DNA of 64,000 bases from an uncultured Gammaproteobacteria bacterium (GCA_964571255.1 CAZNAA010000001.1:620666-684665), one strand, 5' to 3'. Numbered from the stretch's first letter, positions 18,635-41,665 are shown. Translations and numbers: made by a program. Notes: generated by a model from the letters alone, not told the origin.

Positions 18635-19810
18635 TTACCAGGAAGGTAAAAATTCTTTAATATTTGATTGATCTACCTTTACACTTTCTACTTTTCCCTC
18701 AACAATCATTCGTGCAACCTTTCGACACATGCCCTCAATCAGTCTTTCTAAACTTCGAATGCCTGAGTCAAATCCTAAAGGCCTAATAAGAAGCGGCCAA
18801 ACAGAATCATCCACTTGTAACTGAGGTTCTGATAATCCTGTTCCTAATCGCACTCTATTAAACAGATATTGTTTCGCAATGGTTATTTTCTCTTGATCTG
18901 TATAGGAGGGCATCTGGATGATCTCTAAACGGTCTAGAACTGCGGTTGAGATGTTTTTGGTATTATTTGCCGTTGCGATAAACAACACGTTTGAGAGATT
19001 TACTGGATAGTCAATATAATGATCGGTAAAAGCTGCATTTTGCTCAGGGTCTAATAACTCAATGAGAACTCCCATAATATCAGCCCGAGCATTATCAGCA
19101 ACTCTATCTAATTCATCAAGAAGAATCACAGGATTTTTTGTTCCTGCAACACTAAGTTTTTTAATAACGCTCCCTGGTTCTGCATCAGGATACGCTTTTG
19201 ACTGTCCTCTGAGGACTCGTGAATCTGCCATACCTCCAAATGGAATACGAGCAAACTTTCGCCCTAAGGCTTCAGCTATAGAAATTGCCAGGGTTGTTTT
19301 TCCTGTTCCAGCCAATCCAACAAGGCACAAAATAGGAGCATGAGAAATCGTGTCTTTTTTACCAGATTTGAGATTTAAAATAATCGTTGCTAAGTATTCC
19401 AAAATTCTATCTTTAATAGGGTCTAATCCATAATGATTCTTATCAAGAACTTGCTTGGCTTTAATCAAATCCAGTAAGTCCTCAGATTGCGTATTCCAAG
19501 GAAGTCCTAGTACCCAGGTAATGTATGAAGAAGTATTTTCGTACTCTAAAATATAGTTAGTACTCATATACCCACTACTGGCACGAACCAAAGCAAGGCG
19601 TGATACGCGCTCTAAAAGAGTTTGCTTTAAATCCGAAGGAAGCGTAGTTGATTCAACTCGCTCTCCTAATTTTCGAATTTGATCATTTGATTCTATCTTA
19701 TCATTTCCGTTTCCATTCGTTTGAATTTGTGGCACGTCAGTAGTACTCGTTGGAGAGGGGTCTAAAGGAGTTTGATGTGGCGCTTGAAACAGCGGATGAG
19801 TTGGATCCAT
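18635..19810 (-). CDS. Lon-like AAA+ ATPase lacking LAN N-domain and S16 protease domain
   Basis: LGLPWN, LDKNHYGLDPIKDRILEYLA, Walker A LCLVGLAGTGKTT, Walker B VILLDELD, LDPEQNAAFTDHYIDYPVNLSNVLFIATAN; ends right after AAA+ alpha-subdomain; start ATG 19810 (MDPTHPL) because ATG 19831 overlaps the -10. Confidence 0.75.
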   Translation of the reverse strand: MDPTHPLFQAPHQTPLDPSPTSTTDVPQIQTNGNGNDKIESNDQIRKLGERVESTTLPSDLKQTLLERVSRLALVRASSGYMSTNYILEYENTSSYITWVLGLPWNTQSEDLLDLIKAKQVLDKNHYGLDPIKDRILEYLATIILNLKSGKKDTISHAPILCLVGLAGTGKTTLAISIAEALGRKFARIPFGGMADSRVLRGQSKAYPDAEPGSVIKKLSVAGTKNPVILLDELDRVADNARADIMGVLIELLDPEQNAAFTDHYIDYPVNLSNVLFIATANNTKNISTAVLDRLEIIQMPSYTDQEKITIAKQYLFNRVRLGTGLSEPQLQVDDSVWPLLIRPLGFDSGIRSLERLIEGMCRKVARMIVEGKVESVKVDQSNIKEFLPSW

Positions 19811-19830
19811 ATATGTAATACTATACAGCA

Positions 19831-19858
19831 TTTATAAAACCGGAGCAAAATGAGTCAA
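19831..19858 (-). promoter_or_regulatory. Promoter TTGACT(19853-19858)-N16-TATAAA(19831-19836) for lon-like/rnj operon
   Basis: near-consensus hexamers on minus strand. Confidence 0.35.
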
Positions 19859-26617: not shown

Positions 26618-26754
26618 GAAGAGACCCGAGCATTCAATCCGTACATGAAAGAATTGACAATAAAAGTCCTATAGTTTACAATTGGAACATGGCAAAGATA
26701 GCTTTCTTAAGCTATTTAGTCGTTCTTTAACAGTAATACATGGGTTTTTCATAT

Positions 26755-26805
26755 CTAGCTTAGGAGATAAGGTTATACCTTTTATAGCTTTTTTTCCTAA
26801 GCTAG
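26755..26805. repeat. 11-bp perfect inverted repeat CTAGCTTAGGA / TCCTAAGCTAG with 29-nt AT-rich spacer at the AT-rich/GC-rich boundary
   Basis: arms 26755-26765 and 26795-26805. Confidence 0.6.
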
Positions 26806-26820
26806 TAGCAAGGGAATCAA

Positions 26821-26842
26821 TACGCTACCACCTGGTAGCGTA
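26821..26842. promoter_or_regulatory. 22-bp perfect palindrome TACGCTACCA-CC-TGGTAGCGTA 25 nt upstream of ATG 26868 (operator-like or 5'-UTR stem)
   Basis: 10-bp arms, GC-rich like the downstream gene; followed by AGGAGG RBS. Confidence 0.55.
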
Positions 26843-26867
26843 TCTCATCCAGCAGGAGGTAGTCACC

Positions 26868-27467
26868 ATGGCGATCAACGGAAAGTTTGTTGCGTCGGCG
26901 ACGCTACTCGTTAGCCTCTTTCTCTTAGCATTACTAGGCGGAAAGAGCGGAGTGGGGTCAGAACACTACATCCCGCGTCATCAGAGTATTATTCTCATCG
27001 CTACACCCGCACTTGAGCGGGGAGAGTGCTTCGAACTTCGTTTGGAGATCGAGGAAACCTACTCCCCGACCGAACGGATGTATCACACACGAACCTTACT
27101 CACGAAGGAGGATTGGTGCAAGCTGATTGGCGCGGAGCCAGAGCTTGTCTACCAGGTCGGCAAAAATATCCGATCCGCCTCTTCTCAAATATCGATAGAT
27201 GGAGGAACGGTACGGATCGGAGGGCTTCTGAGGCCATTTGGTGCTCAGGAGCACTACAGCGTCACATACCAAGTGACGATAGATACCAGCTGGAAGTGGC
27301 AAGAGAGCTTCGGGTCCAAGGGGCCCGAATACACTCTTTTCCGCATGGGCGATAATCAAAACTCGCCCCCGGCAGATTACATACTCGAAATCACGGAACC
27401 TGAAGGAGTCTCCATTCTCACTGATGAGGGGAGGTATTCCAACTTCGTGATGTCCAAGTCACGCTGA
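26868..27467 (+). CDS. Hypothetical secreted protein encoded in a GC-rich islet (~199 aa, N-terminal signal/TM)
   Basis: AGGAGG 8 nt upstream; MAINGKFVASATLLVSLFLLALLGGKSG...; local GC ~55% versus ~38% flanks. Confidence 0.55.
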   Translation: MAINGKFVASATLLVSLFLLALLGGKSGVGSEHYIPRHQSIILIATPALERGECFELRLEIEETYSPTERMYHTRTLLTKEDWCKLIGAEPELVYQVGKNIRSASSQISIDGGTVRIGGLLRPFGAQEHYSVTYQVTIDTSWKWQESFGSKGPEYTLFRMGDNQNSPPADYILEITEPEGVSILTDEGRYSNFVMSKSR

Positions 27468-27657: not shown

Positions 27658-30033
27658 TTATTTAGAAATCGTATAGATAATTTCTTCATTCTCAACTGAA
27701 AATACTACCTTACTTCCCCGTTGCAGCATATCTTGCAGTTTCATTTTCGCTAAAGCATCCTCAATCGTATCCTGAATATAGCGTCGTAAAGGCCTGGCTC
27801 CAAACTGATTATTAGCTCCATGTGTAGCAATAAAGCCCAAGATGCTTTGATCAAAGCTAACCAAAAAATCTTGTTCTTCAAGGTATTTTGTTAACGATGC
27901 AAGCATGAGCTTGGTCACTTCTATTTGTTCCTGCGCAGAAAGAGGTTCAAACATGATGACATCATCAAATCGATTCAAAAGTTCAGGAGTATACAACCCT
28001 TGTGTTTGCAAAAATTCTAACAGATCTGTTTTCAACTGTTCTGCTTGAGTTTCTGCTTGAATTTTTTCTCGAATAAATTCTGCCCCTGCATTTGAAGTTG
28101 CAATAATGATTGCATTTTTAAAGGACACAACTCTTCCTAACGCATCTGTTAGTCTTCCATCGTCAAGTACCGGAAGGAGAAGATTTAAAACATCTCTGTC
28201 TGCTTTTTCAAATTCATCAAGAAGAATAAGACTAGAGGGATGATCCCGAACAGCTTCTGTTAATTCTCCTCTTCCATTATTTCCTCCAGGCATGCCAATC
28301 AGTCTCGCAACTCCTTCTGCTCCTCTAAATTCACTCATATCAAATCGAAGCATTTTCCCTTCTCCTCCAAAATAGACTGAGGCTAAGGCTTTAGCTGTTT
28401 CTGTTTTTCCAACTCCGGTTGGACCTAGAAACAGAAACGAAATAGGTTTTTTAGGAGGTTCTATATTTGACCGAATTCGCCTCACTGCCTCGGCAATTGC
28501 CACAGTTGCGTGCTGTTGACCAATAATTCTCTCTTGTAACTTGTCTTCAAGGGACAAAAGAGTTTTCTTTTCTTCTTGGCTTGGAGGAAGAGCCGTCGCA
28601 ACCCCTTTTTGTCCAACCGTTTGAGCAACATCTGATTCTTCTAAGAATTGTACTTGTCTTGTCTGGTGGACCCGTTGCCTGACATATCGGATACTGTCCT
28701 CAAGAAGGTTTATCGCACTTCCCGGAAGAACAACGTCTTGGGCATAAGAATCAGAGAGGCGAATTGATTCACGTAAGGCTTGATAACGGATTTTTACTCC
28801 AGTTCGTTTCTCTAAGTCTTCAACTTTTTCACATAAGATATGGAGTGCCGTTTGTTTATCAGGCTCTGAAATAGTAATAACCGTAAAAGCCTCACGAGCT
28901 GGACTATTTTCTAAGTATTGCTTATAGGCAGCTTGGGTCATAGTTGCAATAACAGGAAGTTTCCCATTTTTTAAATAAGGAAGGAGCGCTTCGGCAATAT
29001 TTACCTGGAAAGTAGGATTTCCCAGAATGTTTTCTAAGGCTGGAATATACAAAAGTACGTTATAAGAATGAGACACTTCTTGAATAATGGTTTGTAGCCT
29101 CGTTTCCAAATCAGCTCTATTAGCTGCTCCTGCCAAAAGTTGTCCTACCATTAACTCCAAAATTCGTCTGAAATTTAACTTTTCGGTAAGATTTCCAGAT
29201 TCTGTATCAAAAGCAAAGGCTTTTATGATACTCTCCTTCCCTACACCAATATCTCCAACCAGTAACACGTTATTATTCTCTGGTTTCTGAAGCGTTCCAA
29301 TTAACTCTTCATATTTTGCCTCTCTACTAAATAAATGAGGCCTTTGATAAGAGGAATAATAAAATTCTTGCGTATACTTTTGCGTTTCTGGGGTCCAGCC
29401 AGAAACTACTGCGTCTCCTATTCCTCTGCCACTGACCCGTACTCGAAACGGTTGTGGGTTTTCTTCTTCTGGATGAGCCATTCGAACCCAAGAGAGAAGA
29501 ACAAGGAGATCCTCTCGTTTTAAGTGGAGATTAAAAAGGGTTTGGCTTTGTTCCTCAATAAGCAACAAATAAGAAGCTAATAAATCCATTCGTAAAATGT
29601 ATTTACCCTTCACTTCTGTTGCTAATTCATAGGCAGTACGTAATAGTTGTTGCTGATCCACAAATATCTGAGGAATCATCTGTTTCTCAACTCCAAACCG
29701 GGTGAGAAAGAACTGCCCTTCAACCGTATTTAAAATATTGATTATTCCCCTTGTTCCTTTTTGATAGGCCAAAAGAGCATCAAGCGTACAACACTGGGTT
29801 AAATCAGAAGGATTTTCTGGAATCGTTTTATCAGGCATCATATGGCCTATTTTTCCAAAAACAAACAGCTCAGACGTAATTAAAAATTGAGTTAAAAAAA
29901 GCAAATAAGGAAAAAGGACTTTAGTCTCCCAAGAAAGATAGGCCAAATAGCTTAGTATTAAGACGCCTACTCCTCGAACAATAAGAAATTGCCAGGAAGT
30001 ATAGACTTGATAAATATGGGCAAAATATTTCAT
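27658..30033 (-). CDS. Hsp100/Clp-family ATPase paralog: N-terminal 2-TM anchor + Clp_N-like repeats, degenerate AAA D1 (Walker A GDIGVGKES, Walker B lost), intact D2, no M-domain
   Basis: TMs FLIVRGVGVLILSYLAYLSW / VLFPYLLFLTQFLITSELFVFG; D2 [55 protein letters not shown]; start overlaps upstream gene stop (ATGA). Confidence 0.85.
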   Translation of the reverse strand: MKYFAHIYQVYTSWQFLIVRGVGVLILSYLAYLSWETKVLFPYLLFLTQFLITSELFVFGKIGHMMPDKTIPENPSDLTQCCTLDALLAYQKGTRGIINILNTVEGQFFLTRFGVEKQMIPQIFVDQQQLLRTAYELATEVKGKYILRMDLLASYLLLIEEQSQTLFNLHLKREDLLVLLSWVRMAHPEEENPQPFRVRVSGRGIGDAVVSGWTPETQKYTQEFYYSSYQRPHLFSREAKYEELIGTLQKPENNNVLLVGDIGVGKESIIKAFAFDTESGNLTEKLNFRRILELMVGQLLAGAANRADLETRLQTIIQEVSHSYNVLLYIPALENILGNPTFQVNIAEALLPYLKNGKLPVIATMTQAAYKQYLENSPAREAFTVITISEPDKQTALHILCEKVEDLEKRTGVKIRYQALRESIRLSDSYAQDVVLPGSAINLLEDSIRYVRQRVHQTRQVQFLEESDVAQTVGQKGVATALPPSQEEKKTLLSLEDKLQERIIGQQHATVAIAEAVRRIRSNIEPPKKPISFLFLGPTGVGKTETAKALASVYFGGEGKMLRFDMSEFRGAEGVARLIGMPGGNNGRGELTEAVRDHPSSLILLDEFEKADRDVLNLLLPVLDDGRLTDALGRVVSFKNAIIIATSNAGAEFIREKIQAETQAEQLKTDLLEFLQTQGLYTPELLNRFDDVIMFEPLSAQEQIEVTKLMLASLTKYLEEQDFLVSFDQSILGFIATHGANNQFGARPLRRYIQDTIEDALAKMKLQDMLQRGSKVVFSVENEEIIYTISK

Positions 30034-30377
30034 ATGGCAGATACGATACTCATGATAACAAGAATGGTAACGACAAAAGGAAATCCAATAATAAAACTCA
30101 AAAGGAGTAGCTCAATAAAAAGAATCGGAAGCATCAGAATAAGCCACGTTAAAATAATACATAGTTTCACAAAAATTCCCATCACAATAGAGAATCTCAC
30201 AAGTCCTTCTCGATATTCATTTTTAATTGGTTGAAAAAAGGTTTGGAGAAGCATTTTTATGGAGAACATATGCATAAATGCCTTATTAAATGAGAGAAAA
30301 AAAAGTACTGCTTCTCGAGGTACTTCAATAAACCAAAAATGCAGAAAATAAAGAGGCAAAAGGGAGATATGTGACAT
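30030..30377 (-). CDS. Small polytopic membrane protein (115 aa, ~3 TM)
   Basis: hydrophobic ORF embedded in operon. Confidence 0.5.
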   Translation of the reverse strand: MSHISLLPLYFLHFWFIEVPREAVLFFLSFNKAFMHMFSIKMLLQTFFQPIKNEYREGLVRFSIVMGIFVKLCIILTWLILMLPILFIELLLLSFIIGFPFVVTILVIMSIVSAI

Positions 30378-30415: not shown

Positions 30416-33280
30416 CTATGCAGCTGCAGAAAGTGTCGCACCCGTTGCTGGAGGTTTCGGAGCATCAGGCTGTGACTGATTAAACTCTTGCGTCGGTGGT
30501 AAATTCCACCCAGAAGAAGAAGCAGCAGGAGGAGGAGGTACAGCTGATACAGGGGATGAACTCATAACTGGTGCACCTTCAGTTATTGGAGGCAGCGATG
30601 ATACAGGAGAAGGGGTAGAAGCGAGTAGAGACGGAGGTACCTCTACTGGAGGCATTTGAGATGTGTCAGCAAGATTCTTTTCACTCATTGGATCAATTTC
30701 ATCTAGTTTTGCATCAGGAGTTGGAGGGATTTCTTCTCCTTGAACAGGAGAGGCATCCGGTTTTGCACCACCTGCACTAGCAGAGCCTTTAGCAAAGGTG
30801 AATTCTGATTTTGTAGCGTCGTATCCAACTAAAATAACATCAGGTGAGGCAAATGTTTTCCCAATAAGCTTGACTGCGATGGGATTTTCAATAGAGGTTT
30901 GAATCAACCGTCGTAACGGACGAGCTCCATAGACTGGATCATATCCTTCCTTGGCAAGCTCCATGAGAGCAGATTGGGTAATTTGGAGATCAAGTCCTTG
31001 CTCTTGAAGCAGATGGGCTGTTTTGGCAATATTATTTTTGGCAATTGAGGCCATATCAGCTTGTGCTAGAGGCTTAAAGACAACTACTTCATCAAATCGA
31101 TTCAAAAGCTCTGGCTTGAAAAACTTATGCAACTCATCAGAAAGAAGTGAATTAAGGTCTGCAAAGTCTTTCTGATACTCCTCCTCAGTTGCATGAGGTT
31201 TGCTCATTTGCTGCTGGATCAAAGCACTTCCGATATTTGAAGTAGCAATAATAATGGTGTTTTTGAAAGAAATAGTATTTCCTTTGTTATCCGTAAGTCT
31301 CCCATCCTCAAGCAGTTGCAGTAAAATATTAAAGACATCAGGATGGGCTTTTTCAATCTCATCAAGAAGCACAATGGAGTACGGTTTTCGTCTTACTGCT
31401 TCTGTTAATTGACCACCCTCTTCATAGCCAACATAGCCTGGAGGAGCTCCGATAAGCTTGGCTACTTCATGTTTTTCCATATACTCACTCATATCAAGTC
31501 GAACAAGTGCGTCTTCTTTGCCAAAAAGAATTTCAGCTAGGGTCTTGGCCAACTCTGTTTTTCCAACTCCAGTAGGGCCGAGGAAAATAAATGAAGCAAT
31601 CGGACGAGTAGGACTTGCGAGTCCAATTCTTCCTCTTTGAACTGCCTCTGTTACTGATTGGACAGCTTCTTCTTGCCCAATAAGACGTTTGTGGATAAGC
31701 TCAGCCAAGTGAAGTAGTTTTTCTCCTTCATCTTCAGTCAATTTAGTAATAGGAATCCCTGTCCAACTACTTACAACCTTTTCAATATCTGATTTGACTA
31801 CTGCTGTATCTGTTTTTTTACCTGTTGAGTGTTGCAGCTTAACATCTGCTGCAGCCTCATCCATCAAATCCACTGCTTTATCTGGCAAAAATCTCTCTCC
31901 AATATATTTTTTTGACAAATGGACTGCGTCTTTTAAGGTTTCATCTGAAAAAGTCACACTATGAAACTTCTCATATTTTGGCTTAATGATTTGAAGCATC
32001 TCAACTGCAACTTCCTCAGTTGGTTCGTCAACTATAATTGGCTGAAAGCGTCTTTCAAAGGCTTTATCCTTTTCAAAATGCTTCCGATACTCACTGGTTG
32101 TTGTCGTTCCAATAAGCTGCAACTGTCCCCGAGCTAGATAGGGTTTAACAATATTTGAAGCATCCAGTGCTCCTCCCTCATCTCCTGCTCCAATAAGAGT
32201 ATGAATTTCATCAATGAAAAGAATGATCTCTCCACTCGCCTCAATGGTTTCTTTAATAACATCTCGAAGTCTCTCCTCAAACTCTCCCCGATGAGATGCT
32301 CCGGCCACAAGAGAGGCAAGATCCATTTGAATAATTCTTTTACCTGAGAGATCTTTTGGAGCAGTTCCTCCCACAATTGATTGAGCAAGGCCTTCAACAA
32401 TAGCCGTCTTTCCAACTCCTGCCTCTCCAATGATAATAGGATTATTTTTCGATCTTCTGAGTAAAATATGCACCATTCGCTCAATTTCTTTATCTCGTCC
32501 TGCAATCGGATCTAATTTTCCGTCTTTGGCTTGTTGAGTGAGATCAATTCCATATTTCTCCAAAACTGATTTTTTTCCCGTGTGATAGGTGGGATTTTTA
32601 GCAAGAGACTGAACAAGCTTATCTTTTTGAATTCCCTTCTCACTGAGTGCTTTATTCATCGATTCCAAAGAGGCAAGAGCTACGAGGAGATCTTCAGGTG
32701 AGATAAAGGCAACTCCTCGTCCTTTCACGTCCTTATATGCAGCATCAAAAACTGATTTGGTTTGATCACTCAGTTTTGGCTGCCCTGAAAAATTCCCTGG
32801 AATTTGTTTCGCTTGGATTTCTTTAGAAAGGGCTCCAACATCTACTGATTCTTTTTGCAAAAGAGCAAAAATTTCTTGATCAAAAAGAATTCCATATAAA
32901 AGCAAATCTGGCTCAATCTTTTCTTTTTTCAATCTTGTTGCTTCTTCTTGAGCATGGGTCAAGGCTTGGGAAGATCTCGCATCTAGATGAGAAAGAACTG
33001 ACATGTCTTGCTTGGTTGCAGGATCTAAGGAAGAAGACGTTGAGGCAACAGGTGTTTGTCCTATAGGAGCTTCTGGATCAAGAGGAGTTGGATCATTAGG
33101 AACAGGAGATACAGGCGTACTCGTTGCACCTGAAGAAGCTAATGGAGCTTGAGGTACAGGAGTAGCTACTGGCTGAGCAGATGGTGTTTGTCCGTCTTCT
33201 GGTTTATGAAATAAATTACCAAACATAGTTCCATTATGGACATAAGTTTTGTCAAAAAGCAACTTATAACCTGTCTTCAC
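30416..33280 (-). CDS. ClpA/ClpC-type Hsp100 ATPase (two Clp_N repeats, canonical D1 and D2, no long M-domain) with Pro/Ser/Thr-rich N- and C-terminal extensions
   Basis: D1 [32 protein letters not shown]; D2 [56 protein letters not shown]; 954 aa; overlaps upstream gene by 17 nt. Confidence 0.9.
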
Positions 33281-36200
33281 TTACAGGAGCTTTTTCCTCT
33301 GTTTTACTTGGTGGAATCTCTTCTTTTATCTCCATGTGTTGCACCTTCATCTCAGGCTTTTTCTCGTCACGTCTGGCAGGAAGTTTTGATTCTTCCTCTT
33401 GCTCTTTTTTATCGACATCCTCAAGTACATCTTTGGCTGCTTCTTGTTTGGCCTTCAAATAGCCAACAATTTCTGTTTGTGAGAAGCCTCCAATAAGAAG
33501 GAACGGCAGAATACCTGATACTTTTTTCATTCCTTCCTGTCTTTTTTCATTGACTGGAGAGGAAAGAAGGTTAATGGCCTCAGTAATCTCTTCAATATCT
33601 TGACTGATAAATTGAGCCTTTGGTACTTTTTGTCCTTGTCTAATTGGTTCATCGAGATTTTCATAGTTTTCCTTCCAGATTTTTTTGACTGCTTCATAAT
33701 CCTCAAGTGAGACGTTTTGAACTCTATTCACAACGGGGAAGGAGACATCTTTTTTAATCAGTGAGGTATTGGGTTTTTGCTGGCGTTGTTTGACCAACAA
33801 ACTATAAATAAATCCAGCTAACTGATCACCCTTGTCTTTGGCCTTTACTAGTTCCTCTTTGACTTTCTCAACGGTAACTACAGGCTGTACAGGTGTAACC
33901 GTTTGGATAAGTTGAGTAGCAAAAGGTGTTTGTTGTTGAGCCTCAAGACGGATTTGTTGGGTGAGATTAAAGACTGTTTCTTTACTCGCTTCTCCTCTTC
34001 CCTCAATCATATCCAAAAGTTGCGTGGCAAGTTTGTTGCCTTTTACTTGCTCTTCTTTAATAAAGGTAAGAAGTACTGTGTAGGACTCTTTCTCTTTTTG
34101 ATCAGTAATAAGCTCTGGTTTAAGAAGTTTCTCAACAATCTCTGTAACTTTTTGTGACTGAACTGGAGCAGGAGTAGATTGGACAGGAGTAGTTTGTTTT
34201 TGAACAAGTGTAGAAAGAACCGATTGGAGAGTTGTACTTCCTCGTACTTCTTTTATCGTTTGAGTTACTTGCTTAATCAGATCTTGCGTAATATTTTGAG
34301 GTGATTGGAGAATAGGGAGAAGTTGAGTAGCTAACTGATCACCTTTTTGGGCATCTTTGACAATCGTTTCTCGAATAGTCATAGCTGTTTCTTTTTCTTT
34401 TTGAGGAAGCAAATCAGGTTGAGCTAGGTGTTGGATAAAGGTAGCAACATGATTTTCTGTAATTTCCGTTGTCCCTTGTTGCAAATACGTATTGGTAATG
34501 TAGTTTACAACTGATTGATCTGTTTTATTAACTTGGCTCATTTGCTGAGTGAGAGAATTCATAACAGATGGAGAAAGAGATTGCGTTTGGGTAATAAGTG
34601 AGAGCAGTTGACGAGCTAGTGGAGTACCCAACACTGCTTCTTTCGTAATCGTTTCTTTCAAAACTTCTATATTTTGCTTGTCAGAAATGTTGGTAATCAC
34701 CTCAGGATGTGCGAGTTGGTTAATAATAGTAGTTAAGGCTTGCTCTGTTGAAACAGCTTGGGTACTACTCGACTGATCAGTTTTGGAGGAGATATATTGA
34801 TTAAGAGTTGTGGCAAAAGAGTTTCCCGCAACAGATTGCTGGCTTACGGTCTCTTTGACTTTCTCATAGACTGTTTTTTCGGTTATTTGAGTAACTCGCT
34901 CAGGTGTTGCAATGTTATTTAAGATATTAATTAACACTGGTCTGTCGTCTGAAACAGTAACAGGAGTTGAAACAATAGCACTGGATGCTTGCAATACGAC
35001 ATTGGCAAATTGATTCCCTCTTTGACTTTCATTTCTTAACGTCTCTCGAATCCTTTCAAATTGTTGTCTTTCAACAGGAGTTCTAGCCAGTTGAGGATTT
35101 GAGATTTGTTGGAGATTTTGAACAGACACAGGAGTACTCGTTTGCGTTGTTGTTGTCGTTTTTATTTGATTAGTATCGAACATGGCAATATCTCGCATAG
35201 TAGGAATTGCTACTTGGATTTGTTTGAGAACTTCATTTAACCTACTCACCTCTGTACTTCGAATAACAGGAGTTGATTGCTGCTGTTGCACTGAAACCGT
35301 TTGTCTTAATGGCCTTGCTTGAGGCAGTGACTTGGCCTGAGAGGCTGGAGTAACCGATTGAACGATAGGTTCTGAGAAAGGAAGTTGCAGCTTTCGTCCA
35401 AACGGCAAACTGAGAGCCTTTCCAGTTGGGAAGGAAGGAGGAGTAGGTGGAGGTGGTGGAGATAGTGGTTGACGATTAAGCATAGTATTTGAGAGAGCAA
35501 GAAACTGCTTCATTCCTGGAGCATCATTTAAAGCAAGACTAAATAGATAATCAAGAAAAATACGAAGCAAGATAAAGGGCAAAATCATAACAGCCCACAG
35601 CATCATGAGACAAATAGTGTAGAGAGCAAACGTTTCAGGAAGATTCACGCTACTGGCAAGACCAATAGCTTGTCTTGGTCCTCCTAGTAAAATATTCACT
35701 GCTGTTTGATAGACAGGAGTTGCCGTTTTCGTAACAATAGTTCCTGTTGGTTGATAAGAAAAAAGCGGAATGGTTGATTGCCACAAAGAGACAAGTCCTG
35801 CAAGGAGTACGGCAAAAAGAGGGCCATATAATACCCACCGGAAAAACTCCCCTATCCAAATTTTAGCGGTATTTCGAATCGGCCAGTAGAAAAGAAGCAG
35901 AGGGAAAATGGGAGAGATAATAATAAAAAACCACAATACTATTTTTCGAATAATAAGCATGGCAGCCATGGCATAATAGGTAACTGCAGTAAGTCTGGTT
36001 AAAAGAAGCGTCATGAACGCTGACTCATCAGTAAAGGAGTCTACTCGCTTGTACCCGATAAAGTCTTCATATTTAAATGCAATATTTAGCAAATTTTCTT
36101 GACTAATTGTTTGACGCACTGCAGCAGTGGCGGGATCTGGATTTCGCAGGAAAAACCCTTGGGTAATATCAGTTAGTTGATAAATGATCTGGACCATTCC

Positions 36201-36584
36201 AAATGAAAAGGTGACTAGAAGTAAAATTCCCACAAAGCGGGGAATAAATTTTTGCAAGCTAATATTACTTCCCCTAGTTATGAGCATCAAAAACGCTGTT
36301 GAGAGAATAAAGAGAGCAAAGAATGCATAGACAAGATTTCTGATAATAATCCAGAAAGGAATGAGAGGGTTTCCTTCGTTGCCTAACTGCACCCATTTGT
36401 AGTTTTCCAACGTCCAATCCAAAAACGCTCCAGCTCGTGCAGCTGTTTTTCCAACAAAGGTTACTTCATTATCAACAACCCACGTTCCAACTAAGTCAGC
36501 TGCAAAAATATGAGAGGGAACAAAGAACAAAAGAATACTAAAAATGGTAAGAAAAAGAAGAAAGTTGGGCAGCAAGCGTTTCAT
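33264..36584 (-). CDS. Large membrane protein (1106 aa): signal peptide + ~7-8 TM N-terminal module, poly-Pro linker, ~600-aa Gln/Thr/Ser-rich region of ~6 degenerate tandem repeats, acidic/Lys tail
   Basis: repeat signatures ETIVKDAQKGDQLATQLLPIL / ETITKEAVLGTPLARQLLSLI / EEQVKGNKLATQLLDMI / KAKDKGDQLAGFIYSLL / RNESQRGNQFANVVLQ / QQSVAGNSFATTLNQYI, each preceded by (H/Q)PE(V/L)IT-like segment. Confidence 0.8.
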   Translation of the reverse strand: MKRLLPNFLLFLTIFSILLFFVPSHIFAADLVGTWVVDNEVTFVGKTAARAGAFLDWTLENYKWVQLGNEGNPLIPFWIIIRNLVYAFFALFILSTAFLMLITRGSNISLQKFIPRFVGILLLVTFSFGMVQIIYQLTDITQGFFLRNPDPATAAVRQTISQENLLNIAFKYEDFIGYKRVDSFTDESAFMTLLLTRLTAVTYYAMAAMLIIRKIVLWFFIIISPIFPLLLFYWPIRNTAKIWIGEFFRWVLYGPLFAVLLAGLVSLWQSTIPLFSYQPTGTIVTKTATPVYQTAVNILLGGPRQAIGLASSVNLPETFALYTICLMMLWAVMILPFILLRIFLDYLFSLALNDAPGMKQFLALSNTMLNRQPLSPPPPPTPPSFPTGKALSLPFGRKLQLPFSEPIVQSVTPASQAKSLPQARPLRQTVSVQQQQSTPVIRSTEVSRLNEVLKQIQVAIPTMRDIAMFDTNQIKTTTTTQTSTPVSVQNLQQISNPQLARTPVERQQFERIRETLRNESQRGNQFANVVLQASSAIVSTPVTVSDDRPVLINILNNIATPERVTQITEKTVYEKVKETVSQQSVAGNSFATTLNQYISSKTDQSSSTQAVSTEQALTTIINQLAHPEVITNISDKQNIEVLKETITKEAVLGTPLARQLLSLITQTQSLSPSVMNSLTQQMSQVNKTDQSVVNYITNTYLQQGTTEITENHVATFIQHLAQPDLLPQKEKETAMTIRETIVKDAQKGDQLATQLLPILQSPQNITQDLIKQVTQTIKEVRGSTTLQSVLSTLVQKQTTPVQSTPAPVQSQKVTEIVEKLLKPELITDQKEKESYTVLLTFIKEEQVKGNKLATQLLDMIEGRGEASKETVFNLTQQIRLEAQQQTPFATQLIQTVTPVQPVVTVEKVKEELVKAKDKGDQLAGFIYSLLVKQRQQKPNTSLIKKDVSFPVVNRVQNVSLEDYEAVKKIWKENYENLDEPIRQGQKVPKAQFISQDIEEITEAINLLSSPVNEKRQEGMKKVSGILPFLLIGGFSQTEIVGYLKAKQEAAKDVLEDVDKKEQEEESKLPARRDEKKPEMKVQHMEIKEEIPPSKTEEKAPVSEDRL

Positions 36585-36702
36585 ACTATAAATTCATAAA
36601 AAGAGTAGACAGAATTACCTATCTCTCCTCTTGTATAGTAGCATATTTACTGACTCATATTGGAATAGATATTTAACAAATTGTGGATGAAAAAGAGATT
36701 CA

Positions 36703-36733
36703 GGTATCCCGCTGCAGTTAGCAGCGGAATACC
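36703..36733 (-). terminator. 13-bp stem hairpin GGTATcCCGCTGC-AGTTA-GCAGCGGaATACC followed on minus strand by UCUCUUUUUC
   Basis: seen directly; sits between GC-islet ORF and the Clp operon start. Confidence 0.5.
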
Positions 36734-36904
36734 ATACTCTTGCGATGATAGTGTGAAGGAGTAGTCTACGGTAGCCTGCATCTCCCACCCAATGGAATCA
36801 TGCCCCCAGCGTTTACCCACCCTGAGGCGCGTAGTCGCTTTGCAACCGCCTGCTCGTCTTCTTCTTTGGTACGGGCTTGACATGATCTCCATCCTTTCTT
36901 GTTG

Positions 36905-37276
36905 TTAACCATTTATCTGCTCGTCGATCATCGAGAGCAGCAGTTCGCGGACATTGTCCTCCGCTAACAACCGTCGGAGAGCAAGCCTCGTGATAGCACC
37001 CTTGAAGGCCGAGAGAAAGATCTCGATGATAGCGTGTTCGTGTTGGGAAGCAAAATTGTGTTTTTTTTGCTTCGCCAAATCCTGCCACCTCGGATAGTGG
37101 GGGCGTTCGTGGGGGAAGAACTTAACAGTCTTTTCCCCCCAGAAACGCCACCTGGGCCTGCGATGATCTACCCTATTGAACTTATCCCACGTTTCTATTG
37201 GAAGTAAGTCCACAAGTGCTACAACAAACGCTGTAGTATTGTTTTTGAGGTCGATTTGAGAATCTAGGATTTCCAT
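36905..37276 (-). CDS. Hypothetical protein in second GC-rich islet (~123 aa)
   Basis: GGAGG upstream of ATG 37276 (MEILDSQIDLK...); GC ~50%; overlapping alternative-frame ORFs judged spurious. Confidence 0.45.
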   Translation of the reverse strand: MEILDSQIDLKNNTTAFVVALVDLLPIETWDKFNRVDHRRPRWRFWGEKTVKFFPHERPHYPRWQDLAKQKKHNFASQHEHAIIEIFLSAFKGAITRLALRRLLAEDNVRELLLSMIDEQING

Positions 37277-37524
37277 TTTTCCCTCCTGCCCTCCTACCAC
37301 TGGTACATCCAGTAGTATTGAAGCAAGTAAAAAGAAAAGAAATTAATTCCTTCCCTCTTTCCTTGCTTCAAAAGATAACAGAGATTACGTTTCACAACTA
37401 TTAATGTGCAAGAGAATTAAAATATTCTAGGTTCTACTAGATTTCTGCATTCAGAAATAAGTTGAATCTAAAAACTGAGAAGATTATAAGATAAAAATAG
37501 AGAGATTGCAAACTATGGGGTTGA

Positions 37525-38406
37525 TTAGAACCAATTTTTCTTTTTGGAATCGGTACTATCAAATTCTTCCAGTAATTCTTTTTGTCTTTTCGTTACACTT
37601 TTTGGAATAGCCACTTTAATCTTGACGTAGTGATCTCCATTCCCGCCTCCTCTGATTCTTGGCATTCCTTTCCCAGAAAGTCTAATAAGCATTCCAGGTT
37701 GTGTTCCTGAGGGAATTTTTATCGTTACTTTTCCTTGAACTGTTTCAACAGGTAATTGAGTTCCGAGTACAGCTTGAGGAAAAGAAATCTCTTCTTCTGT
37801 AATAATGTCTGCTCCTTCTCTTTGATATCTGTTGTGAGGCTGTACATCAATAAGAACGTCATAGTTTTCAAATCGAATACGAGATCCTCGGTCTACCCCT
37901 GCTGGGATTTTTATCTTTTGTTTTTTCCCATCAATCGTTACTTCTTTTTCTACTCCTTTTATAGCATCATCAAAAGTAATGGTTAAGGAGTAAACAGGAC
38001 GACGTTGGGCTCTGGAGAAAGGTCCGCCGGCTCCTCCAAAAAATTGTTCGAAAATTTCAAAGGGATCTGAAAATCCGCCAGAATCAAATCCTTGGTTTTG
38101 AGAAGAAGAATAAGTATACGTAAATGGCCCTCCTCCTTGGAAAGGTCCACCAGGTCCTGGTCCCCCTGCTCCTGGACCTCCTTGATCAAAAGCAGCTGAA
38201 CCATATTGATCGTATAATTGTTTTTTCTGAGGATCTGAGAGAACTTCGTATGCCTTAGTTATTTCTTTAAATTTAGTTTCTGCTTCCTTAGTTTTATTTC
38301 TATCTGGGTGATACTGCAGTGCAAGCTTTCGATATGACTTTTTTATTTCATCAGGTGGAGATGATTTGGTAATTCCTAGTAATTGATAATAATCAGTTTG
38401 TGCCAT
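37525..38406 (-). CDS. dnaJ: DnaJ-family co-chaperone (J domain + G/F region + C-terminal domains; no Zn-finger CxxCxGxG repeats)
   Basis: YYQLLGITKSSPPDEIKKSYRKLALQYHPDRN. Confidence 0.9.
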   Translation of the reverse strand: MAQTDYYQLLGITKSSPPDEIKKSYRKLALQYHPDRNKTKEAETKFKEITKAYEVLSDPQKKQLYDQYGSAAFDQGGPGAGGPGPGGPFQGGGPFTYTYSSSQNQGFDSGGFSDPFEIFEQFFGGAGGPFSRAQRRPVYSLTITFDDAIKGVEKEVTIDGKKQKIKIPAGVDRGSRIRFENYDVLIDVQPHNRYQREGADIITEEEISFPQAVLGTQLPVETVQGKVTIKIPSGTQPGMLIRLSGKGMPRIRGGGNGDHYVKIKVAIPKSVTKRQKELLEEFDSTDSKKKNWF

Positions 38407-38425
38407 AGGTCTTTAGATACGAAAG

Positions 38426-38443
38426 AAGCGCGTTTCCGCGCTT
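38426..38443. other. Intergenic hairpin AAGCGCG-TTTC-CGCGCTT between dnaK and dnaJ
   Basis: 7-bp GC stem; minus-strand RNA loop GAAA; T-run on plus side, weak U-run on minus side. Confidence 0.4.
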
Positions 38444-38467
38444 TTGTATAGCTTTTTGAGCTAATAG

Positions 38468-40381
38468 TTATTCTACCACTTCTCCTTCTTTTGCTTTTCC
38501 TTTATCTTCTCCCGGCTCTTTTTTCTCATCACCATCAGTTTTCCCATCTTCCTCAACTGCTTCAATTTCTGGTTCCTCAGTTGGATTAGGAGTAGATTGC
38601 ATATGTTGTCCAATTTTTTGCATAGATTCAGCTAACTCTTTGGATTTACTCTCAATCTCTTCTTTGCTTCCTGAATCAAGTACGCTTCTGAGACTACTGA
38701 TTTTTTCCTCAACTTCAGTTTTTATTTCATCAGTTATTTTCCCTTCAGCATCTTTAAGGGATTTTTCTGCAGTAAAGATGAGTGAGTCAGCCATGTTTTT
38801 AGCCTCAACTTGAGATTTTTTCTCTTCGTCTTCTTTTGCATGCAACTCTGCTTCTTTAGTCATTTTTTCAACCTCTTCTTTGGATAACCCAGTTGAGCCT
38901 TGAATCTTGATACTTTGCTCTTTGCCACTAGCTTTGTCTTTAGCCGTAACGTGCAAGATTCCATTGGCATCAATATCAAAAGTCACCTCAACTTGTGGCA
39001 TACCTCGTGGAGCTGGTGGAATTCCGTCTAGGATAAATCTTCCCAAGGATTTATTATCAGCTGCCATAGATCTCTCCCCCTGTAATACATTAATTTCAAC
39101 TTGTGTTTGGTTATCAGCAGCAGTTGAGAAAACTTGGGATTTACTCGTTGGAATAGTCGTATTTCGATTAATAAGAGGAGTTGAAACAGCACCAAGCGTC
39201 TCAATACCCAGAGTTAATGGAGTAACGTCTAAAAGAAGTACATCTTTAACATCTCCTGCCAATACTCCTCCTTGAATGGCTGCACCCATGGCAACGACTT
39301 CATCTGGATTTACTGACTTATTGGATTCTTTCCCAAAGTATTTAGAAACTGTTTCGATAATCTTTGGCATTCGAGTCATTCCTCCAACCAAAACGACTTC
39401 ATCAACCTCCGATGCTTTCATCCCAGCGTCTTTAAGAGCTAATTCTACTGGTTTAAGCGTTTTTTGAACTAAATCATCAACAAGTTGCTCAAGCTTGGAA
39501 CGAGTCAAAGTCAAAGTCAAATGTAGTGGGCCATTCTCTCCTTGGGTGATGAATGGTTGATTAATGGATGCCTCTTGTGAAGAAGATAGTTCAATTTTGG
39601 CTTTTTCAGCAGATTCTTTGAGACGTTGGAGTGCTTGAGGATCTTTTCTCAAATCAACGTTGTTTTCCTTTTTAAATTCATCGGCAATGTGATCAATAAT
39701 GACTTGATCAAAATCATCTCCTCCCAAATGAGTATCACCATTCGTCGACTTTACCTCAGTTACGCCTTCTCCTAACTCAAGAATAGAAATATCAAACGTC
39801 CCTCCGCCCAAGTCATATACGGCAATCGTATGAGAGTTTTTCTTATCTAAGCCATAGGCTAAAGCTGCTGCAGTTGGTTCGTTAATAATTCGTTTTACAT
39901 CAAGTCCAGCAATCTCTCCAGCTTGTTTGGTTGCTTGGCGTTGACTGTCATCAAAATAGGCGGGAACGGTGATAACTGCTTCTGTTACTTTCTCACCCAG
40001 ATAGGACTCTGCATCGGCTTTGATTTTTTGCAAAATCATGGCTGAGATTTCTTGTGGAGTAAAGGTTTTCCCATCAACCTCAACTACTGCCATTCCATCT
40101 CGTCCTTCTTTAACAGTGTATGGAAGCCATTTCAAATCGCGTTGTACGGATTCGTCTTTAAACTTTTTTCCCATGAGACGTTTGACTGAGAAAATGGTTT
40201 GTTTTGGCTTTAACACCATTTGGCGCTTAGCAACGTCTCCAACAACGTGGGAGATTGGGTCAACCACTGAAGGGATAACGTTTCTGCCTTCAGCTGAGTG
40301 GATAACATTTGCCATTCCACCTTGCATTACAGCAACGCATGAGTTTGTTGTTCCTAAATCAATTCCAATTATTTTACCCAT
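38468..40381 (-). CDS. dnaK: Chaperone DnaK (Hsp70)
   Basis: [31 protein letters not shown], acidic C-terminal tail. Confidence 0.97.
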
Positions 40382-40443
40382 ATATTTTTTGTGAGTCTTT
40401 TTAAGATCTCAGAGAAAAAAATTTATTTTTCTTCTCTCAAATC

Positions 40444-40956
40444 TTACTTTCCTCCAACTGCTACTTCAGCAGGACGTAGTAATTTTCCGTAGAGCAAGTA
40501 TCCAGGACGTCTTTCTTCAATCACTATATTAGCATCTCCGTCAATAATTTCAACTGCCTCCATGAGGGATGGATCAAAAACTTTTCCAACTGTTTCTATC
40601 TTCTCAACCCCTTCACCTTTTAGTGCGTCTTTGTAGACAGTAATGACTAATTCAAGAGTCTTATCAGTATTATGCTTTGAAGTCATCTCCAGCATATCTA
40701 GAGTGGGAAGTAATCGTTGCAGAAGAGACAGATTGGCACTTTTAATCCACTCTGACTTTTCTTCTCGTACTCGCTTTTCAAGGTTCTGATAATCAGCAAG
40801 AATTCTCTTGTACTGATTTGTCATTTCTTCTAGTTGTATTTCGCAACTGTCATGTATGTCTTCTTCAAGAACAGGCATTTCCTCCACGTCTTGTTGTTCC
40901 TCTTTCACTTGATCTTGCTTCTTCATAATTTTACCACTGTTTTGCCACGTCTTCAA
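40444..40956 (-). CDS. grpE: Nucleotide exchange factor GrpE
   Basis: coiled-coil N-half and C-terminal beta domain; operon position. Confidence 0.85.
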   Translation of the reverse strand: MKTWQNSGKIMKKQDQVKEEQQDVEEMPVLEEDIHDSCEIQLEEMTNQYKRILADYQNLEKRVREEKSEWIKSANLSLLQRLLPTLDMLEMTSKHNTDKTLELVITVYKDALKGEGVEKIETVGKVFDPSLMEAVEIIDGDANIVIEERRPGYLLYGKLLRPAEVAVGGK

Positions 40957-41665
40957 TCAAATCTCCAAAATATCTTACTGCAGGAACAATAGTTGTATAG
41001 TTAAGGCGTTGTGGTCCAATAACTCCAATTTCTCCATGTTCCTGTCCTGGTACGTTGTACTCAGTAAAAACTAACCCATATGGTCCTTTTAACGCTCCTC
41101 CTAATTCATCTCCCATAACAATGTGAATTTCTTCATCAACGTCACTGTTTGCAAATAGTACTTTGAAATATTCATACTCATCCAAGGCTTGTAAAAGTGT
41201 TTTAGTGATATCGATATCAAAAAACTCTGGCATATCTAAAATATGTGCATAGCCTGAGCAATAGATTTGTCCACTTCCTGTTGTAGCAATGGCAACGGCT
41301 CCCGTTTTTTGAGCTAATGACTTAGTAACTTCCCTCAGAAACCTATCGACTTGAGACCGATAATCCCATACATTTTCTTTTAAGGCTACTTCCTCAACCG
41401 TTGATAACTGCTTTACTTTCATTAACTCTTTGACATACAGTCTCATGCCTTCAGCGGTTGGGATTCTTCCGGCTGAGGTGTGAGGTTTTTCTAAATAGCC
41501 AAGAGTTGTTAGATGAACCATTTCGTTTCGAATGGTTGCAGGAGAAGCACTTAAATTATATTTCTTCTCAATGGTTTCTGATCCAACTGGTAAAGCAGTG
41601 TCAATGTATTCCTCAATAATACTTTTCAGAATATCGATTTGACGCTGAGTAAGGTTATGAATCAT
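40931..41665 (-). CDS. hrcA: Heat-inducible transcription repressor HrcA (short, 244 aa)
   Basis: N-terminal winged HTH (TQRQIDILKSIIEEYIDTALPVGSETI), operon hrcA-grpE-dnaK-dnaJ. Confidence 0.85.
   Translation of the reverse strand: MIHNLTQRQIDILKSIIEEYIDTALPVGSETIEKKYNLSASPATIRNEMVHLTTLGYLEKPHTSAGRIPTAEGMRLYVKELMKVKQLSTVEEVALKENVWDYRSQVDRFLREVTKSLAQKTGAVAIATTGSGQIYCSGYAHILDMPEFFDIDITKTLLQALDEYEYFKVLFANSDVDEEIHIVMGDELGGALKGPYGLVFTEYNVPGQEHGEIGVIGPQRLNYTTIVPAVRYFGDLIEDVAKQW

Follow-up and report, generated by a model that had tools for sequence, protein, structure and literature searches.

Clp/Hsp100 ATPases are textbook soluble threading machines, and the locus described here raises the question of what a protein of this group does when it is predicted to sit in the membrane and to run on one of its two ATPase rings. 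The gene lies in a stretch of 64,000 nucleotides (nt) of DNA (the window; GCA_964571255.1 CAZNAA010000001.1:620666-684665) that is recorded under the name of an uncultured Gammaproteobacteria bacterium. It occupies positions 27658..30033 on the minus strand and encodes a protein of 791 amino acids (aa) with an ATG start. An initial annotation made from this DNA had read the product as a Clp paralog that is anchored in the membrane and has a degenerate D1 ring, and that reading holds, with membrane insertion itself being a prediction. The protein, termed TM-Clp for its predicted transmembrane (TM) segments, is a genuine, conserved and lineage-specific variant of the class-I Clp/Hsp100 ATPases. 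Its family is defined by an N-terminal TM hairpin with R20 and E55, a D1 module without the Walker B Asp, a D2 module with intact nucleotide motifs and an upstream gene for a small membrane protein carrying a KNEYR motif. Confidence in this architecture and in the description of the family is very high.

Homologs and class assignment

More than 100 homologs of ~800 aa were gathered, which are 42-49% identical to TM-Clp. The residue counts given below come from an alignment of 108 homologs. Invariance in D2 was judged on an alignment of 74 sequences, and the AlphaFold2 model was also built from a 74-sequence alignment. Ratios of non-synonymous to synonymous substitution rates (dN/dS) were computed against a relative that is 92% identical (locus L090).

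All five motifs quoted in the initial annotation are present in the translated gene. Pfam identifies AAA_lid_9 (PF17871) at residues 393-462, AAA_2 (PF07724) at 529-691 (E=1.7e-45) and ClpB_D2-small (PF10431) at 698-777 (E=8.9e-18), and the D1 region gives weak generic P-loop matches only. TM-Clp contains the two tandem AAA+ modules, the D1 lid and the D2-small domain of a class-I Clp/Hsp100 protein. The solved relatives that rank best by sequence and fold are ClpC, ClpB and ClpA, and the best sequence match among solved structures is B. subtilis ClpC (E=1.4e-99), with D1 aligning to ClpC residues 184-453. The soluble Clp paralog encoded next to TM-Clp is 36% identical to it and collinear across 544 aa.

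Scores against the NCBIfam equivalogs are far under their cutoffs for ClpB (TIGR03346; 421 vs 1232 bits), ClpA (382 vs 993 bits) and ClpV (348 vs 885). TM-Clp is set apart from ClpB by the M-domain, from ClpA/ClpC by the ClpP loop, from ClpV by score and context and from the Torsins by its two rings. Identity as a defence system was considered and rejected: PADLOC gave generic Clp-D2 matches only, and these are shared with the canonical neighbour.

The N-terminal hairpin and the start codon

Two strongly hydrophobic N-terminal segments had been claimed for the protein. Both segments are present and conserved in the family, with TM helix 1 predicted at aa 14-37 (29923..29994, minus strand) after a basic N-tail and TM helix 2 at aa 41-62 (29848..29913, minus strand). 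Their Kyte-Doolittle peaks are 1.88 and 1.61, respectively, using a window of 19 residues. The strength of the claim is overstated for the second segment, which is marginally hydrophobic and contains conserved polar residues, namely Asn in most homologs at position 49 (Q49 here), E55, and His in most homologs at position 59 (F here). Insertion energies were estimated with an approximate, position-independent scale of the Hessa type over the best 19-residue window. Across the family, the lowest energy within residues 1-75 has a median of 0.5 kcal/mol, and the remainder of the family proteins never falls below 4.6 kcal/mol; canonical Clp N-termini are at ~16. The two helices of this TM-Clp have values of 2.0 and 4.3 kcal/mol. 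In the AlphaFold2 model, whose mean predicted local distance difference test score (pLDDT) is 83, residues 14-37 and 41-62 form helices at pLDDT ~88-91.

Nearly all full-length homologs share the same N-terminal pattern, in which a basic tail (Y..YRsAl.R..R) leads into a hydrophobic helix and, past a short loop, into a further helix (LFlfNlfVM.EvFFHyK), with K61 and R/K64 after TM helix 2. Positions conserved at 90% or more are Y11, R20, L27, F46, E55, F57 and P67. Averaged over the family, Lys plus Arg number 3.6 for the N-tail, 0.9 for the loop and 3.3 for the stretch behind helix 2, a distribution that fits a topology with both ends in the cytoplasm, as the ATPase domains need. The conserved pattern, the low insertion energies and the selection on codons 1-65 (below) place the two segments far outside what chance would give. 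The protein seems to be membrane-tethered, in which it is unlike every characterised relative.

Two charged residues stand out within the hairpin. R20 (29974-29976, minus strand) and E55 (29869-29871, minus strand) co-occur in nearly all unfused members at similar predicted membrane depth, and they are found in 101 and 105 of the 108 homologs, respectively. Both are lost in the variants that are fused to the upstream gene (loci L016, L054, L066, L080 and L086). This joint loss is a hint of a buried Arg-Glu pair, and the sequences suggest that R20 and E55 form one within the hairpin.

The hairpin would be an artefact if translation truly began at Met65 or Met66, the next in-frame ATG codons, since the hydrophobic N-terminus would then be untranslated and the protein an ordinary soluble Clp; a few database homologs are indeed annotated in a shorter form of 737-750 aa. 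Residues 1-65, however, are conserved in more than 100 homologs, and codons 1-65 differ from L090 by 12 synonymous and 2 non-synonymous changes (dN/dS 0.038). The ATG of TM-Clp shares bases with the stop codon of the gene upstream (ATGA), which is the commonest arrangement among related species, the in-frame fusions retain TM helix 2, and the helices are modelled confidently. A mis-called start had been named as one of two results that would undo the initial annotation. The downstream start is effectively refuted by N-terminal conservation and dN/dS, and the start is upheld with residues 1-65 under purifying selection.

The D1 ring

The D1 AAA+ module (28594..29328, minus strand; aa 236-480) is catalytically degenerate. 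In its Walker A motif, GDIGVGKES (29230..29256, minus strand; aa 260-268), Glu takes the place of Ser/Thr, as it does in 98 of the 108 homologs, and the Lys is retained in 101. At the Walker B position, YIPALE (29032..29049, minus strand; aa 329-334), the Asp is replaced by Pro and the Glu by Ala, with the change from Asp to Pro found in 106/108 homologs. The Arg fingers (RR) have become E-[A/V] in the family. TM-Clp therefore shows neither the GK[ST] and hhhhDE patterns nor the Arg fingers of a hydrolysis-competent D1.

Intact D1 motifs in a proper alignment were the other result that would have undone the initial annotation; the degeneracy stays when D1 is properly aligned with ClpC, ClpB and the canonical paralog in the same genome. 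In the alignment to ClpC and the soluble paralog, GDIGVGKES falls on GEPGVGKTA and LLYIPALE on ILFIDEIH; against B. subtilis ClpC, LLYIPALEN covers the Walker B strand ILFID(E/A)LHT. It is a conserved family trait and not a lesion specific to this copy. In more divergent representatives (identity of 50% or below), the Walker B Asp-Glu and the Arg fingers are missing without exception, and some keep GK[ST]. Judged by these motifs, D1 is unable to hydrolyse ATP and is kept conserved across the family.

The pore loops, both primary and secondary (D1'), were defined following PMC6546751. The D1 primary pore loop AGAANRAD (29110..29133, minus strand) has Asn in place of the Tyr of K-Y-R, and across the family this Tyr is replaced by Asn, Asp or Thr. 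The D1' loop GNPTFQVNIAE (28990..29022, minus strand) has a family-specific aromatic residue, F342. The corresponding family motif is G[AGS][ST][ST][YF]x[LI]D[LI]SG, with Tyr or Phe in 106/108 homologs, and the canonical Clp sequence has no aromatic residue there. R306 (100/108 homologs) and E310 (107/108) align with R252 and E256 of ClpB, which are D1-loop residues that form inter-protomer salt bridges (PMC6546751). Their retention suggests that TM-Clp assembles into an ordinary hexameric spiral.

With several catalytic and pore-loop residues gone, TM-Clp could be taken for a decaying duplicate that is drifting towards a pseudogene. The replacements, however, are themselves conserved, both in D1 (GKEN and IP[ED]FQNILG) and in the D1' loop (SS-Y/F-x-L-D-L-S-G). 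Values of dN/dS are 0.06-0.08 in every domain, with 0.060 for D1 and 0.069 for D2. The catalytic residues of D2 are invariant, and 141 species-level genomes carry the family. Decay is excluded by the conserved replacements and the low dN/dS.

The D2 ring and absent accessory elements

The nucleotide motifs of the D2 AAA+ module and its D2-small domain (27661..28593, minus strand; aa 481-791) are intact. They include Walker A GPTGVGKTE (28399..28425, minus strand; aa 537-545), Walker B LLDEFEKA (28201..28224, minus strand; aa 604-611) and sensor 2 GARPLRR (27781..27801, minus strand; aa 745-751). Walker A, Walker B, sensor 1 N648, the Arg finger R688 and sensor 2 R747/R751 are invariant in all 74 sequences. 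D2 is strongly predicted to be competent for ATP hydrolysis and to be the sole motor of the protein.

D2 had been called fully canonical. That description suits its nucleotide motifs (Walker A, Walker B, sensor 1, Arg finger, sensor 2) and fails for the pore loop. In the D2 primary pore loop, GMPGGNNGRGE (28264..28296, minus strand), the GYVGY sequence is lost; it reads GNNGR here and GAPPGE-GDERG in the family, with no aromatic residue. Among 70 species-level sequences the loop is variable and in several it is largely deleted (e.g. LL----DELV), and this degeneration is seen with or without an adjoining soluble Clp. The pore-loop tyrosines of K-Y-R in D1 and G-Y-V-G in D2 are thus missing from both rings.

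A ClpP-docking loop, which the initial annotation had proposed to look for in D2, is absent. The region of the VGF motif of ClpC is a gap in TM-Clp and likewise in the family, and no (I/L/V)G(F/L) motif or insertion between sensor 1 and the Arg finger is present in the 108 homologs. For this reason, the generic name that the family carries in public databases, 'ATP-dependent Clp protease ATP-binding subunit', is misleading. An M-domain is missing as well: D1 and D2 are joined by a linker that is as long as that of the M-less neighbour and collinear with it, and the match to ClpB is split in two.

The N-domain

Between the hairpin and D1 is an all-helical N-domain (29464..29811, minus strand; aa ~75-190), for which the AlphaFold2 model has eight helices (residues 78-186). 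The initial annotation had described Clp_N-like repeats here, for which the evidence is mixed. No Pfam match to Clp_N (PF02861) was obtained for TM-Clp or for any of 120 homologs, and a family profile found no match in the PDB. Profile-profile comparison with the N-domain family of the soluble neighbour by hhalign gave a probability of 77% (E=2e-5) over 86 columns, in register. Searching 1.84 billion representatives with residues 1-236 (phmmer) returned 58 clusters only, and in the full-length matches the module was always N-terminal in proteins of ~780-830 aa, with no other placement or length. The N-domain is possibly a remote derivative of Clp_N.

The small membrane partner

The gene directly upstream of TM-Clp (30030..30377, minus strand) encodes a membrane protein of 115 aa with the motif TFFxPxKNEYRxGLV and shares the ATGA overlap with TM-Clp. 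No Pfam or NCBIfam family matches it. Its homologs have the invariant pattern T.F.P.KNEYR.GLV.F…K…E…P, and its dN/dS is 0.05-0.13. The NCBI record annotates it as a hypothetical protein of 79 aa that starts at the internal Met37. The 115-aa form is supported by the conservation of residues 1-36 in homologs and by a dN/dS of 0.13 over those codons.

The partner was then used as a query with one genome per species, which found 141 species, and 80 loci were fetched. TM-Clp follows the partner directly in 72/72 loci with enough downstream sequence (the script counted 71/72, the single miss being an overlapping start). The commonest spacing is the 4-nt ATGA overlap. In the five species with in-frame fusions, listed above, the small protein takes the place of TM helix 1 and is joined straight to the equivalent of TM helix 2. 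This replacement implies that the C-terminus of the partner is across the membrane from the ATPase, and the fusions are a Rosetta-stone indication of one acting unit and support a physical link between the two proteins. Two distant members of the family, with N-termini ~25% identical, also have an upstream partner (hhalign 99.1% and 99.5%). This linkage strongly supports an obligate two-protein unit of TM-Clp and its ~110-aa partner, with coupled translation.

Comparison with known systems

TM-Clp is like ClpC, ClpB and ClpA in its tandem AAA+ modules, D1 lid, AAA_2-type D2 and D2-small domain. With ClpA it further shares the M-less linker, and its alignment to the NCBIfam ClpA model runs in a single stretch across residues 122-778. 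It differs from all three in having a hairpin where they have a free Clp_N, in lacking D1 catalysis, the pore-loop Tyr, the M-domain and the ClpP loop, and in having an obligate small membrane partner.

FtsH, a membrane-anchored AAA+ protease, contains one classic-clade AAA module with an aromatic pore loop and a fused M41 protease, and its TM helices are separated by a sizeable extracytoplasmic domain. In TM-Clp the modules are two and of the Hsp100 type, ~3-8 residues connect the TM helices, a protease is lacking and the primary loops contain no aromatic residue. It has a predicted TM hairpin but no peptidase domain, and it is therefore not of the FtsH type.

The Torsins form a single ring in the lumen of the endoplasmic reticulum and lack an Arg finger of their own, which LAP1 or LULL1 supplies. 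TM-Clp is bacterial, has a second, dead ring and has an invariant Arg finger in D2 (R688); the resemblance is functional only. Pex1/Pex6 and NSF are alike in that one degenerate ring is structural and the other ring is the motor, and they operate at the membrane through an anchor. They differ in being classic-clade AAA proteins that are attached via Pex15/Pex26 or SNAP-SNARE and whose active ring keeps aromatic pore loops. Hsp101 of PTEX is soluble, keeps the pore-loop tyrosines and uses its D2 face to dock on the EXP2 pore. Mitochondrial CLPB (Skd3) has a single AAA+ ring and also keeps these tyrosines; its N-terminal hydrophobic stretch is removed by processing.

Genomic neighbourhood and alternative functions

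The gene order on the minus strand of the window is hrcA, grpE, dnaK, dnaJ, a VirB6/TrbL-like gene, the soluble Clp gene, the small partner gene, TM-Clp, nusA and infB. The hrcA-grpE-dnaK-dnaJ genes (37525..41665, minus strand), identified by Pfam matches, are directly upstream of the cluster. Next come a VirB6/TrbL-like polytopic membrane protein of 1106 aa with a repeat-rich C-terminal tail (33264..36584, minus strand) and the soluble Clp paralog of 954 aa, which has intact D1/D2 motifs and P/S/T-rich tails (30416..33280, minus strand). Neighbours were counted in loci with at least 9 kb of flanking sequence. Upstream of TM-Clp, dnaJ is on the same strand in 35/51 loci, the soluble Clp is present in 33/51 and the VirB6-like gene in 30/51, and nusA is downstream in 51/56. 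In the remaining loci the pair of partner and TM-Clp is often straight after dnaJ. A role in proteostasis is suggested by this location within the dnaK operon. No families of the type VI secretion system were found among the scanned open reading frames (ORFs) of the window or among the genes called in related loci.

The soluble Clp keeps GYVGY in D2 and has neither an M-domain nor a ClpP loop. It is itself unusual, with His in place of the D1 pore-loop Tyr (SHR) in 41/42 orthologs and long Pro/Ser/Thr-rich tails at both the N- and the C-terminus; its orthologs range from 818 to 1517 aa.

This neighbour allows an alternative in which TM-Clp anchors or regulates the soluble, active Clp, either in mixed hexamers (as in Pex1/Pex6 and Yta10/Yta12) or by docking a soluble ring at the membrane, with threading done by the canonical pore loops of the soluble protein. 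A Clp with canonical motifs is just upstream in about two-thirds of the loci (the 33/51 counted above), one is also near one distant member, and the two paralogs are collinear with the same M-less linker. TM-Clp is without gripping tyrosines while the neighbour retains GYVGY in D2, and TM-Clp also retains the two D1-loop residues, Arg and Glu, whose aligned counterparts in ClpB make salt bridges between protomers. However, in about one-third of the loci no canonical Clp adjoins within 9-10 kb, and these loci have the more degenerate D2 loops, so that no pattern of compensation is seen. The partner that is invariably linked to TM-Clp is the small membrane protein and not the soluble Clp. An anchoring or regulating role is unlikely on balance.

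The VirB6-like protein has a signal-like N-terminus, a polytopic domain and a ~700-aa Q/T/S-rich tail with at least five repeats ending in G..LA.QLL. Its matches to PF04610 (E=1.3e-4 to 2.5e-5) are below the Pfam threshold, and 11/21 orthologs match this family. In relatives the soluble Clp gene always follows it, and the VirB6-like gene is also found at locus L093. A gene like VirB2 or T4SS_pilin precedes the VirB6-like gene in 26/30 loci, and 6/6 tested pilin-like proteins match PF18895; this gene is missing from the window. No VirB4 or VirD4 is called in the eleven loci with gene tables.

These genes admit a further reading, in which TM-Clp, together with the small protein and the soluble Clp, supplies the ATPase components of a VirB4-independent envelope machine based on the VirB2-like and VirB6-like proteins for pilus assembly, secretion or uptake. 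The order pilin-like, VirB6-like, Clp, small gene and TM-Clp recurs at the frequencies given above, the genes overlap or nearly abut, the pilin-like and VirB6-like proteins match the Pfam families named above, and VirB4/VirD4 are not called in the eleven loci. In Patescibacteria, many VirB6 and VirB2 homologs stand away from virB4 (PMC12102498). Against this, the evidence is adjacency, and the VirB2/VirB6/Clp block is missing from ~40% of the loci, in which the pair is straight after dnaJ. The window itself has no pilin gene, and an anchor on the entry side of the ring suits pulling from the membrane and not pushing into a channel. Such a role is improbable.

A joint version of these ideas can also be formulated, and is a distinctly long shot. 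In it, a hexamer of TM-Clp and its partner would bring at least 12 TM helices into the membrane, whose buried Arg-Glu pairs would build or gate an axial conduit, and this would work with the VirB2-like and VirB6-like proteins and the soluble Clp as a VirB4-independent pilus or transport machine without tyrosine pore loops. If true, the conduit machine would assemble or retract a pilus or move macromolecules across the membrane of host-dependent bacteria.

Proposed mechanism

The preferred reading is that TM-Clp is a D2-driven remodeller at the membrane face that serves membrane proteostasis, with a probability of roughly 0.4-0.5. The chain would begin with a basic cytoplasmic N-tail and a two-helix hairpin that keeps both ends inside the cell and holds the helical N-domain ~15 residues from the membrane. 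Six subunits would form a ring in which the dead D1 is retained as a structural layer and D2 is the only motor, with the face made of the N-domain and D1 pressed to the inner surface of the membrane. Substrates enter by this face in every Hsp100 machine solved so far. An entry face at the membrane favours acting on or extracting membrane clients over pushing outward. ATP hydrolysis in D2 would then remodel or pull clients embedded in or associated with the membrane, or the small partner. The protein would do so within the heat-shock and proteostasis network of DnaK, DnaJ, GrpE and the soluble Clp paralog. The missing M-domain implies that there is no DnaK coupling of the ClpB type, and the missing ClpP-docking loop that TM-Clp is not the partner of a protease.

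The loss of both pore-loop tyrosines, together with a D2 loop that is dispensable, speaks against processive ClpB-like threading. Any grip would come from the new aromatic residue of D1' and may be weaker than that of the tyrosines. A remodeller or switch of low processivity is more likely than a ClpB-style threading machine, and by analogy with the Torsins D2 may act as a conformational switch.

Several observations weigh against a membrane-face remodeller. Membrane insertion is a prediction, and segment 2 is marginal (~4.9 kcal/mol in the family). The AlphaFold model of the partner consists of just long helices that are compatible with several numbers of membrane spans. FtsH and Msp1 keep strong pore loops, as expected of dislocases, and the D2 loop of TM-Clp is degenerate or deleted, unlike that of an expected dislocase. 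The missing M-domain speaks against direct, ClpB-like cooperation with DnaK. One of the distant members is in an unrelated genomic context with no chaperone genes around it. Finally, the CIRCE/HrcA operator, TTAGCACTC-N9-GAGTGCTAA, was not found in the window with up to three mismatches, and hrcA is preceded by a single inverted repeat, which is no more than a trivial palindrome. With no operator found, heat-shock co-regulation is proposed from gene order.

Other features of the window

In a consensus scan of 26.5-42.2 kb, promoter-like sites occurred as often as expected by chance. Terminator-like sites in the same region number 20, compared with 13.4 in shuffled sequences (standard deviation 3.2), and none marks an operon boundary. 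Rfam gave no match at gathering thresholds across the window and none at E<=1 in two intergenic gaps, and no tRNA or tmRNA was found in the window.

Relative to L090, which has a space of ~100 nt between dnaJ and the VirB6-like gene, the window contains an insertion of ~830 nt at this place (36694-37524), which is the site of the VirB2-like pilin gene in most relatives. The core of the insertion has a GC content of 47-58%, compared with 39% for the genome, and its folding gives z = -5.9 on the minus strand and z = -3.1 on the plus strand. It matches no Rfam family and has no second copy in the window and none in related loci. A 131-aa ORF within it (36905-37300, minus strand) has no Pfam match. 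The insertion could be an unknown structured RNA or the remnant of a mobile element.

Downstream of pnp, positions 18635-19831 (minus strand) encode a protein of 398 aa in which an AAA domain and a Lon lid are present and the Lon protease domain is missing, and counterparts of 354 and 420 aa are found at the same syntenic position in loci L008 and L091. Between nusA and TM-Clp, on the opposite strand, is a 261-aa ORF with a TTG start and no Pfam match (26682-27467, plus strand), which from an internal Met (aa ~63) resembles a signal peptide followed by a secreted domain. A gene of 208 aa stands at this position in L090, so that the mechanical ORF is probably longer than the real gene.

Taxonomic range and literature

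The records of TM-Clp loci are mostly named Levybacteria, Microgenomates or Patescibacteria, and the family is confined to the Patescibacteria (candidate phyla radiation, CPR), chiefly Levybacteria/Microgenomatia. Some loci, including L010, L015, L020, L022, L028, L030, L045 and L078, have synteny of the Levybacteria type and a NusA 65-78% identical to that of the window, and carry titles such as 'uncultured Gammaproteobacteria', 'Woesearchaeota archaeon', 'Methylomirabilota', 'Sulfotelmatobacter' and 'Lysobacterales'. On the basis of the shared synteny and NusA identity, these names are almost certainly placeholders or the result of mis-binned taxonomy.

No description of a membrane-anchored bacterial Clp/Hsp100, of Clp in Patescibacteria or of the TM-Clp family was found in the literature. 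A survey of type IV secretion in Patescibacteria reports many VirB6 and VirB2 homologs away from virB4 and does not mention Clp (PMC12102498).

Implications

A membrane-integral Hsp100 lineage that works with D2 only and has no pore-loop tyrosines would challenge the assumption that Tyr-mediated threading is universal, and TM-Clp offers a natural 'D1-dead, pore-loop-less' design for dissection. For the uncultivated, host-dependent bacteria that carry it, TM-Clp and the small membrane protein with the KNEYR motif make up a new two-gene module in the dnaK operon. The frequent linkage of this module to VirB2-like and VirB6-like genes without VirB4 raises the question of whether orphan parts of type IV secretion are powered or serviced by Clp.

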